Shown in pieces: positions 15,961-16,344 of a stretch of DNA of 32,000 bases. The notes under the pieces are model-generated. The model was not told the DNA's origin. It made no database searches and was given only the letters and a program-made list of their open reading frames with translations. Position 1 is the stretch's first letter, and every line of letters begins with the position of its first letter. A program made the translations under genes and the position numbers. Origin of the DNA: Bacteroidales bacterium (lineage in GTDB: Bacteria > Bacteroidota > Bacteroidia > Bacteroidales > FEN-979); assembly GCA_038244085.1 (NCBI GenBank), contig JBBRTX010000015.1:4997-36996 (forward strand). Reading direction: 5' to 3'.

Positions 15961-16326
15961 TTAGCAGTTCAGGTTCGTTTCCATAGAAATTTCCGAAAGA
16001 AACTTAGCAAAGAGTGCATGGATCTGTTTTGCCCGTTGTTCGTCAATACAGTAATTTATGGTCAGCCCGTCAATCGTTCCCTTGATCAGCCCGGTTTTCC
16101 TGAGTTCCTGCAGATGCTGTGAAACCGTCGTCCGGCTTAATGGTATCTGATCTGAAATGTCGCCCGAAATACAGGTCTTCTGTTCGGCAAGGAATTTAAG
16201 AATTGCCAGTCTTGCAGGATGAGACAGCGCTTTTGCGATTTTAGCCATTTCCTGAAGATGGTTCTGAAAAACATTGCTCTTAGAGTATGTCATAATTGTA
16301 TATTTAATGTCGCAAACATACGACAT
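15961..16326 (-). CDS. arsR: ArsR/SmtB-family transcriptional regulator (probable true start ATG at 16293)
   Basis: AKALSHPARLAILKFLAEQKTCISGDISDQIPLSRTTVSQHLQELRKTGLIKGTIDG winged HTH; first gene of the acr3-hgcAB run. Confidence 0.9.
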   Translation of the reverse strand: MSYVCDIKYTIMTYSKSNVFQNHLQEMAKIAKALSHPARLAILKFLAEQKTCISGDISDQIPLSRTTVSQHLQELRKTGLIKGTIDGLTINYCIDEQRAKQIHALFAKFLSEISMETNLNC

Positions 16327-16327
16327 T
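16306..16327. promoter_or_regulatory. Candidate ArsR operator: AATGTCG-N8-CGACATT
   Basis: Perfect 7-bp inverted repeat with 8-nt spacer immediately upstream of the probable arsR start (16293). Confidence 0.7.
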
Positions 16328-16344
16328 GTAAATTTAAAAACAAA
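16313..16344 (-). promoter_or_regulatory. Bacteroidota-type promoter TTTG-N20-TATGTTTG for arsR-acr3-hgcAB
   Basis: On minus strand, -33 TTTG (16341-16344), 20-nt spacer, -7 TATGTTTG (16313-16320), matching the TTTG/TAnnTTTG consensus. Confidence 0.65.

Follow-up and report, generated by a model that had tools for sequence, protein, structure and literature searches.

How transcription of the mercury-methylation genes hgcA and hgcB is controlled in nature is an open problem, and the abundance of the genes and of their transcripts predicts methylmercury production poorly. The question takes concrete form in a stretch of 32,000 nucleotides from a Bacteroidales bacterium (subsequently designated the window), in which hgcA and hgcB follow, on the minus strand, the genes arsR and acr3 encoding a putative regulator and an arsenite efflux permease, respectively. 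An earlier note on this DNA had pointed to a perfect dyad upstream of arsR whose arms enclose the -7 box of a promoter, and had suggested that a repressor bound to both arms would cover the promoter core. Our comparative analysis indicates that the 22-bp element at 16306-16327 is probably an ArsR operator that forms a single element with the core promoter in front of arsR-acr3-hgcA-hgcB.

The -7 box of a Bacteroidota-type promoter is part of a palindrome upstream of arsR

Direct reading of the minus strand yields the order ...cattTTTG-tttttaaatttacAATGTCG-TATGTTTG-CGACATT-aaatatacaattATG, and up to the start of arsR the sequence is ...TTTTCA-TTTG-TTTTTAAATTTAC-AATGTCG-TATGTTTG-CGACATT-AAATATACAATT-ATG. 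The motif TTTG at 16344-16341 corresponds to the -33 element of promoters of the Bacteroidota sigma-A type, and TATGTTTG at 16320-16313, recovered by reading as well as by pattern search, conforms to the -7 box TAnnTTTG. The two are separated by 20 nt, which bears out the match TTTG-N20-TATGTTTG that had been proposed for the minus strand. This lies within the canonical -33/-7 spacing of Bacteroidota, about 19-21 nt, as Bayley in 2000 and Chen in 2007 are said to have described it.

The inverted-repeat finder returned two arms of 7 nt each, which are 100% complementary and 8 nt apart: the promoter-distal left arm AATGTCG (16321-16327, minus strand; predicted at about -19 to -13) and the promoter-proximal right arm CGACATT (16306-16312, minus strand; predicted at about -4 to +3). 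The arms do flank TATGTTTG exactly, as the earlier note had it, but the description of a dyad bracketing the box proved too simple, as operator and box interdigitate. Symmetry extends into the -7 box, generating the half-sites AATGTCGTA and TGCGACATT with one T.G position, which makes the element an imperfect 9-4-9 palindrome rather than a 7-8-7 dyad around the box. Four of the eight box bases are shared with the palindrome, i.e. the first two (TA) and the last two (TG), and these represent the innermost bases of the half-sites. In the map of transcription start sites of F. psychrophilum the box occupies positions -12 to -5 (PMC9723704). When this rule is applied, transcription is predicted to start near 16308, approximately 5 nt past the box, leaving a leader of about 15 nt.

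Across 13400-16600, the minus strand contains no TAnnTTTG besides the copy inside the dyad. The combination TTTG-N19-21-TAnnTTTG occurs twice in the 32 kb, with 0.59 occurrences expected, and the core shared by the family of related elements, TCGTA-N4-TRCGA, occurs once, with 0.03 expected. The sole other exact match to the promoter pattern, TTTGTTTTCGGGAAAGGTGGATATAGTTTTG at 2500-2530 on the minus strand, presumably marks another promoter. A scan for sigma-70 promoters and terminators detected nothing at the site, which is uninformative because the Bacteroidota consensus differs. We rejected the dyad by itself as evidence: three perfect 7-nt inverted repeats are present within the same 800-nt stretch, so a dyad alone is unremarkable, and its significance derives from position and conservation. 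One perfect 7-nt inverted repeat, AATGAAA/TTTCATT (16343-16349 and 16367-16373, 17 nt apart), coincides in part with the -33 TTTG; the relatives did not show it upstream of arsR, and it is probably a chance occurrence.

The element is conserved as a unit upstream of arsR

For comparison we used 80 arsR loci from different species-representative genomes, mostly metagenome-assembled genomes (MAGs) of Bacteroidota plus Ignavibacteria and Marinimicrobia, which together with the window provide 81 upstream regions. With locus L016 set aside, 79 upstream regions entered the analysis, and there were 77 distinct upstream rows. The best match to the 14-nt core TCGTATATTTGCGA was sought in the 200 nt upstream of each arsR. 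At least 12 of the 14 positions matched in 63 of the 81 regions and at least 10 in 80 of them, while the maximum score in 1,620 shuffles was 11. According to the earlier note, its proposal would fall if orthologous arsR genes were not preceded by a conserved dyad; instead, the dyad recurs in nearly all 80 relatives, with the box at its centre.

Conservation is confined to the element. Only across about 19 columns does the information content reach 1.1-2.0 bits (with a dip to 0.57 in one central column), whereas the flanks mostly stay at 0.2-0.8 bits. This stretch reads (A/G)TCGTAT(A/G)TTTGCGA(T/C)ATA and includes the arm core (A/G)TCG, which is conserved at 1.1-2.0 bits per column. G2, T3, A4, T9 and C11 are invariant in 77 of 77 distinct rows, the TA of the box and the T of column 9 being among them. 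When the window was aligned with the 11 nearest loci using MAFFT, all invariant columns but one fell inside the element and the flanks could not be aligned. The distance from the end of the element to the ATG is 13-17 nt in 52 loci, with a mode of 16 nt, which is also the value in the window.

The promoter signals are conserved along with the palindrome. TA-N3-TTG is kept in the Bacteroidota-type relatives, and in 47 of the 63 Bacteroidota-type loci a TTG is located upstream of the box at a spacer of 19-21 nt. Sixteen loci, mostly from Ignavibacteria and Marinimicrobia, carry A at column 10, resulting in a symmetric TACGA half-site. In five of these 16 the palindrome is centred on TATATT or TATATA, located 16-18 nt after TTGACA or TTGACT. 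In these five loci the same palindrome therefore appears to house a sigma-70-like -10 element, whereas in Bacteroidota it houses the -7 box.

Symmetry of the arms and a possible link to the regulator

Watson-Crick symmetry is complete (100%) for columns 2/11 and 4/9 and amounts to 86-87% for columns 0/13 and 1/12. The outer pair -1/14 is symmetric in 96% of rows although its identity varies, being A..T in 50 rows and G..C in 24 rows; permutation gave a mean symmetry of 55% and a maximum of 73% for this pair. The two column pairs that break the symmetry, 3/10 (T.G in 61 of 77 rows) and 5/8 (T.T), are precisely those that create the TTTG of the box.

The arm sequence also varies together with the regulator. 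Residue 54 is the first residue of the recognition helix (residues 54-67 in the structural model described below), and it is Arg in all 27 loci with the proximal arm CGAC and Gln in all 51 loci with CGAT. This match would fit direct readout of the arm by the adjacent ArsR, in a supportive role only, since the correlation is confounded with clade and does not extend to a paralogue. A simple code in which Arg54 reads G and Gln54 reads A was considered and rejected: it is perfect within the clade, but it fails for the paralogue, which has Arg together with T/A arms, and it cannot be separated from the clade split.

The putative operator recurs at ars genes and at hgcAB

The earlier note had also raised the possibility of further dyad copies forming an ArsR regulon. 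Within the 32-kb window the dyad is a single copy, with no second one found even at 2 mismatches, but related loci do carry additional copies at arsM or ArsP genes. In 702 kb of arsR loci, searched on both strands, only 82 sites match at 12 or more of the 14 positions, and nearly all of them are located at arsR. Of the additional sites at this threshold, two precede arsM (arsenite methyltransferase, NF008823); a related copy is located in front of the gene for an ArsP-like permease, for which the NCBIfam matches lie below cut-off. The ars genes found across the loci of the relatives comprise arsC, arsM, acr3 and ArsP.

Among the loci selected through arsR, hgcAB is found downstream in three: in L004 the order is arsR-arsC-?-DsbD-hgcA-hgcB-acr3, in L005 hgcAB is downstream and the contig is cut, and in L061 hgcA follows at about 4.7 kb, past genes for an ABC transporter, a rhodanese and ArsC. 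An independent sampling based on HgcA provided 80 metagenome loci, 53 of which extend at least 1 kb upstream. A homologue of ArsR on the same strand was present in 14 of these 53, and in 10 of the 14 the pattern CGTA-N4-T[AG]CG was detected no more than 120 nt upstream of that arsR; overall the pattern occurs at 0.033 per kb. In L093, L096, L111 and L091 arsR directly adjoins hgcA, and the operator of L093 and L096 reads ATGTCG/ACGTCG-TATGTTTG-CGACATTAG.

A second dyad, ATTTCG-TA(G/A/T)(T/C)TTTG-CGAAAT, likewise encloses a -7 box (L061:413, L070:49, L078:1571, L033:592, L051:1592, L106:1151 on the minus strand and L088:9622). It precedes operons encoding a thioredoxin-like protein, an ArsR paralogue of 99-117 aa with the motif ACC(T/Y)SGE, DsbD-like proteins and an ArsP permease; the L088 copy stands directly before an 86-aa open reading frame (ORF) and hgcA, with no adjacent regulator gene. 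Since this dyad too encloses the -7 box, placing the promoter box inside an ArsR-type dyad appears to be a general design in these genomes.

Some loci differ in the arrangement of their operators. In four of them (L132:940, L133:7174, L146:993, L015:5356) a second copy follows directly after arsR and precedes arsM, so these operons would have two ArsR-controlled promoters in series; the arsM product of L133 also gives a below-cut-off match to ArsN2 acetyltransferase. In L011, a divergent intergenic region contains two operators placed back to back, at 3467 (minus strand) and 3683 (plus strand). The first of the two flanking genes is arsR and the second encodes an 808-aa multi-haem protein rich in CxxCH, each with one operator facing it, which hints at a respiratory or redox enzyme in the regulon of that MAG. 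A sister clade of ArsR (L003, L007, L008, L081:6076/6105, L103:384/412, L104, L107:9178/9206) is associated with two tandem sites (A/G)ACGTA-N4-TACGT(C/T) about 28 nt apart, the upstream site being almost perfectly palindromic and the downstream site containing a TATATTT(A/G) box; this suggests cooperative double operators.

Genes of the arsR-acr3-hgcA-hgcB unit

The genes that had been named downstream of the element, arsR, acr3, hgcA and hgcB, all score above the curated NCBIfam cut-offs. On the minus strand, arsR (15961-16293) encodes a regulator of 110 aa and the presumed binder of the dyad. It is followed after 49 nt by acr3 (14853-15911; TIGR00832 score 441, cut-off 283; Pfam SBF match), and this succession of arsR and acr3 on one strand with a short junction constitutes an ars operon; arsC, present in the relatives L004 and L061, is absent from the unit in the window. 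A single nucleotide separates acr3 from hgcA (13814-14851; NF040863 score 430, cut-off 275), whose product has the cap helix NVWCAAGKG, matching N(V/I)WCA(A/G)GK, and in its 345-aa form is identical to database protein P0121. The gene hgcB (13503-13799; NF040864 score 123, cut-off 99) starts 14 nt further on and encodes a ferredoxin with two 4Fe-4S motifs and a C-terminal Cys pair (...GGNCC). Cap helix, equivalog-level match and adjacent HgcB identify the pair as hgcAB at the level of the genes. From strand, spacing and the single TAnnTTTG of the region, co-transcription of arsR-acr3-hgcA-hgcB as one operon is plausible.

The acr3 stop codon and the hgcA start codon lie one base apart (TAA-T-ATG, 14849-14855), which suggests translational coupling of the pump and HgcA. 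Convergent with the 3' end of hgcB, at a gap of 33 nt, a gene on the plus strand (11616-13469) encodes a hybrid sensor kinase with response-regulator, PAS, PAS, HisKA_3 and HATPase domains. A weak terminator-like hairpin at 13437-13423 on the minus strand falls inside the coding end of this gene.

The annotated start of arsR requires correction. A mechanical ORF call begins at 16326 and would use an ATG at 16324-16326, which lies within the left arm. Translation should instead begin with the ATG at 16293 (M-T-Y-S-K): M-(T/A)-Y-(S/K)-K is the conserved start across the family, and K5 is conserved in 78 of 78 relatives. The N-terminus MSYVCDI, which is the translation of ATGTCGTATGTTTGCGACATT, is found on many deposited ArsR homologues (57-74% identity), and others start with MFATL..., a different reading frame of this DNA. 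As these extension peptides are in different frames, the element is conserved as DNA and gene callers start arsR inside it. Operator-internal starts have been called in P0001, P0021, P0047, P0058, P0077, P0091, P0114, P0120 and others, and the element thereby flags a systematic annotation error. The 121-aa version of ArsR starting at 16326 was rejected, since the frames vary while residues 1-5 of the short form are conserved family-wide.

ArsR of the window matches Pfam PF01022 (HTH_5; score 44.7, cut-off 22) and NCBIfam NF033788 (67.2, cut-off 55). The AlphaFold2 model (predicted local distance difference test score 86.7) shows a winged helix-turn-helix with helices at residues 11-23, 26-38, 54-67 and 85-102 and strands at 70-75 and 78-83; this is the ArsR/SmtB fold, with alpha3 not assigned as a helix by DSSP. 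Foldseek matches in the PDB are SrnR, NolR, SqrR, CzrA, HlyU and AfArsR/CgArsR (6j05/6j0e), with template modeling scores of 0.55-0.68.

In R773 ArsR, As(III) is bound by a triad of C32-x-C34 plus C37 in alpha3, and other types of ArsR use N- or C-terminal cysteines. Three cysteines are conserved in the present family: Cys41 (72 of 78), Cys82 (78 of 78) and the C-terminal Cys110 (78 of 78). The window protein reads C41-I-S43 and lacks the CxC of the R773 type. In a sub-clade (L025, L027, L051, L061, L070, L078) ArsR lacks Cys41, reading KEI(K/R)TG(N/D)IS, and has His at position 80 together with the same ATGTCG/CG(A/T)CAT operator. Its effector-sensing site probably differs, and one member, L061, has hgcA downstream.

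Probable autorepression by promoter occlusion and its alternatives

A classical ArsR/SmtB autorepressor that occludes the core promoter is the best-supported reading of these data. Those parts of the promoter-covering repressor proposed in the earlier note that could be tested computationally held: gene content, conservation of the dyad, covariation of its arms, the -33 TTG in relatives, the occurrence at hgcA loci and the sole TAnnTTTG of the region. That the adjacent ArsR binds the element is an inference with which the comparative evidence agrees strongly. An ArsR homodimer would place one recognition helix on each half-site, AATGTCGTA and TGCGACATT, and would thereby cover the TA and TG ends of TATGTTTG as well as the predicted start near 16308. 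Because the half-sites include both the ends of the -7 box and the predicted start, bound repressor should deny sigma-A RNA polymerase access to the promoter. Affinity for DNA would drop once Cys41, Cys82 and Cys110 bind a thiophilic metalloid, for which As(III) or Sb(III) is the likeliest candidate. The promoter would then fire, and the short-leader mRNA would direct synthesis of ArsR (negative autoregulation), the arsenite pump and HgcA/HgcB.

Several observations weigh against this interpretation. The 80 loci were chosen via arsR, so co-occurrence of motif and arsR is partly by design. The correlation of residue 54 with the arm follows one clade split, which may represent a single event, and several other protein columns correlate with the arm equally well. 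Internal promoters of non-consensus type may exist before acr3 or hgcA. As single-stranded RNA, the element can form a 9-bp hairpin of -10.5 kcal/mol (z = -2.2), in which the T.G position becomes a legal G.U pair. Finally, ArsR of the window has Ser43 and N80 in place of Cys43 and Cys80, both of which are present in most of the family; this makes for a non-canonical As(III) site and leaves the inducer uncertain.

This last point leads to an alternative in which the architecture is the same but the regulator responds to another signal: methylarsenite or another organoarsenical, Sb(III), Hg(II) or methylmercury, or a thiol-oxidising or persulfide signal. In that case hgcAB would not be induced by arsenite. 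The clade of the window has lost Cys43 and often Cys80, the sub-clade with the same operator lacks Cys41 as well, and BigR, SqrR and HlyU, which do not sense metals, are among the nearest sequence relatives of solved structure. In Pseudodesulfovibrio mercurii ND132, ArsR2 responded to treatments related to S-adenosylhomocysteine in addition to arsenic, but hgcA was not induced by Hg in this strain (bioRxiv 10.1101/2022.10.17.512643). Moreover, the first structural gene of the unit encodes a bona fide ACR3 arsenite pump, and the regulon of the relatives consists of the ars genes arsC, arsM, acr3 and ArsP. Three cysteines are kept, and according to established ArsR chemistry three suffice for trigonal coordination of As(III). 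A different inducer is plausible, given the altered set of cysteines, but we consider it unlikely.

A nucleic-acid hairpin, be it a stem-loop in the 5' leader RNA acting on stability or translation or a DNA cruciform, could also produce a palindrome, with no protein operator involved. The hairpin of 9 bp has a 4-nt loop and only four of 200 shuffles fold as well; furthermore, the outer pair covaries as A-U/G-C, and T.G is compatible with a wobble pair. However, -33 and -35 elements are found at canonical distances in two promoter grammars, and the start should therefore be inside or after the right arm, leaving the 5' arm untranscribed. Conservation also goes beyond pairing, as sequence identity itself is preserved at the five invariant positions, and the stem is interrupted by T-T mismatches in 7 rows and C-A in 9 rows. 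The stem is AT-rich and has no terminator tail, and a scan of 16200-16650 against Rfam at E<=1 matched no family, which likewise counts against an RNA structure. This explanation appears very improbable.

The element might instead be a genuine protein site that is recognised by another regulator than the adjacent ArsR, for instance a global or a paralogous one. In favour of this, several of the clusters encode a paralogous ArsR-family protein with the related dyad ATTTCG-TAnnTTTG-CGAAAT, and the related site before hgcA in L088 lacks an adjacent regulator gene. Yet in 79 of 81 upstream regions the ATGTCG/ATCG-type site goes together with this ArsR clade, site and residue 54 of the recognition helix change together, and the paralogue has an arm sequence of its own. 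Binding by another factor is thus, if anything, a shade less probable than a hairpin. That the dyad arose by chance or belongs to a longer arsR coding sequence (the 121-aa ORF from 16326 and the database calls) has a negligible probability, for although gene callers begin the protein at MSYVCDI in P0001 and about ten relatives and perfect 7-nt repeats are locally common, the same DNA is also read in other frames (MFATL..., VCLRH...) and its distance to the conserved MTYSK varies, the ATCG-type majority lacks any ATG in the element, residues 1-5 of the short form are conserved and shuffles never reach the observed motif scores.

Discussion

Autorepression by ArsR through occlusion of its own promoter thus probably accounts for the element in the window. 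A broader picture can be drawn tentatively, and we regard it as quite possible while holding it with considerably less confidence: hgcAB of Bacteroidales and other methylators of the Fibrobacterota-Chlorobiota-Bacteroidota (FCB) group would belong to an arsenic-responsive ArsR regulon whose promoter is built into the operator, an ancestral ATCGTA-N4-TACGAT having been retuned by one A-to-G change into the Bacteroidota -7 box and housing a sigma-70-like -10 element in the five Ignavibacteria-type loci. If so, arsenic or a related thiophilic metalloid, and not mercury, would set transcription of the methylmercury-forming genes in widespread environmental anaerobes, and operator and core promoter would have co-evolved as one unit across a change of promoter grammar.

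The sole hgcAB regulator studied experimentally, ArsR2 of ND132, is confined to Desulfovibrionaceae and lacks a defined binding site. A cis-element of about 20 bp, conserved in many MAGs of Bacteroidota and other FCB-group members, would connect hgcAB with the ars regulon. Searches of metagenomes for this element could predict methylators with hgcAB under ArsR control, and it makes regulation of hgcAB in Bacteroidota directly testable. Bacteroidota promoters are unlike those of E. coli, and the element could also be of use in this group as a promoter part that responds to metalloids.

Comparison with known systems

Dyads overlapping the promoters of ArsR/SmtB regulators, an arsenic-responsive ArsR at hgcAB and operators overlapping a -7 box are already known. 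Like the autorepressors of the ArsR/SmtB family (ArsR of E. coli R773 and of the E. coli chromosome, S. aureus CadC, CzrA, Synechococcus SmtB), ArsR of the window is a small winged helix-turn-helix protein, presumably a dimer, encoded by the first gene of its own operon, with a putative inverted-repeat operator at the promoter and predicted derepression by a thiophilic metal or metalloid. The operators of CadC and CzrA also overlap the -10/start region. SmtB and CzrA sites are of the 12-2-12 TGAA type, and the R773 site is likewise unlike the present operator, which has the core CGTA-N4-T[A/G]CG and in the window takes the form AATGTCGTA-TGTT-TGCGACATT. In contrast to these autorepressors, the present operator is interdigitated with a Bacteroidota -7 box and not with sigma-70 -10/-35 elements, and the C32-V-C34 of R773 is reduced to a single cysteine (C-I-S).

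Within Bacteroidota, a palindromic operator overlapping TAnnTTTG has been described for AusR, a regulator of the GntR family in Zobellia galactanivorans, for which repression by occlusion was demonstrated by electrophoretic mobility shift assay and mutants (PMC7641319). AusR differs in regulator family, operator and effector (alginate oligosaccharides); moreover, operator and -7 box are 125 nt apart at AusR's own promoter (PMC7641319), while in the window it is the autoregulated promoter that is predicted to be occluded. An arsenic-inducible ars operon with arsR and acr3 has been reported for Bacteroides vulgatus ATCC 8482 (Li, Mandal and Rosen 2016, Anaerobe, cited in PMC6205960). It shares with the window the origin from a Bacteroidales anaerobe and the arsR/acr3 pair, and the account given in PMC6205960 reports no hgcAB for it. 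A literature search, with regulon databases and the B. vulgatus study outside its scope, retrieved no described ArsR operator of Bacteroidota and no fusion of one with a -7 box.

The linkage of ars genes and hgcAB as such is not new. Flanking of hgcAB by acr3, arsC, arsM and arsR has been reported (McDaniel et al., PMC7438021), and ArsR-type regulators and ars genes beside hgcAB in Bacteroidetes and Ignavibacteriae have been noted (bioRxiv 10.1101/2022.10.17.512643). In ND132 the ArsR2 gene is located upstream of hgcAB and is co-transcribed with it, and hgcAB responds to arsenic (Gionfriddo et al., bioRxiv 10.1101/2022.10.17.512643; Goni-Urriza et al. 2020 as cited there). That paper nowhere uses the terms "operator", "palindrom" or "inverted repeat" (bioRxiv 10.1101/2022.10.17.512643). 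According to its authors, ArsR2 is specific to Desulfovibrionaceae, has a four-Cys site and is without adjacent ars genes (bioRxiv 10.1101/2022.10.17.512643). By comparison, the regulator of the window belongs to a large clade of FCB-group ars operons, acr3 is located between arsR and hgcA, and a concrete, conserved cis-element precedes the unit.

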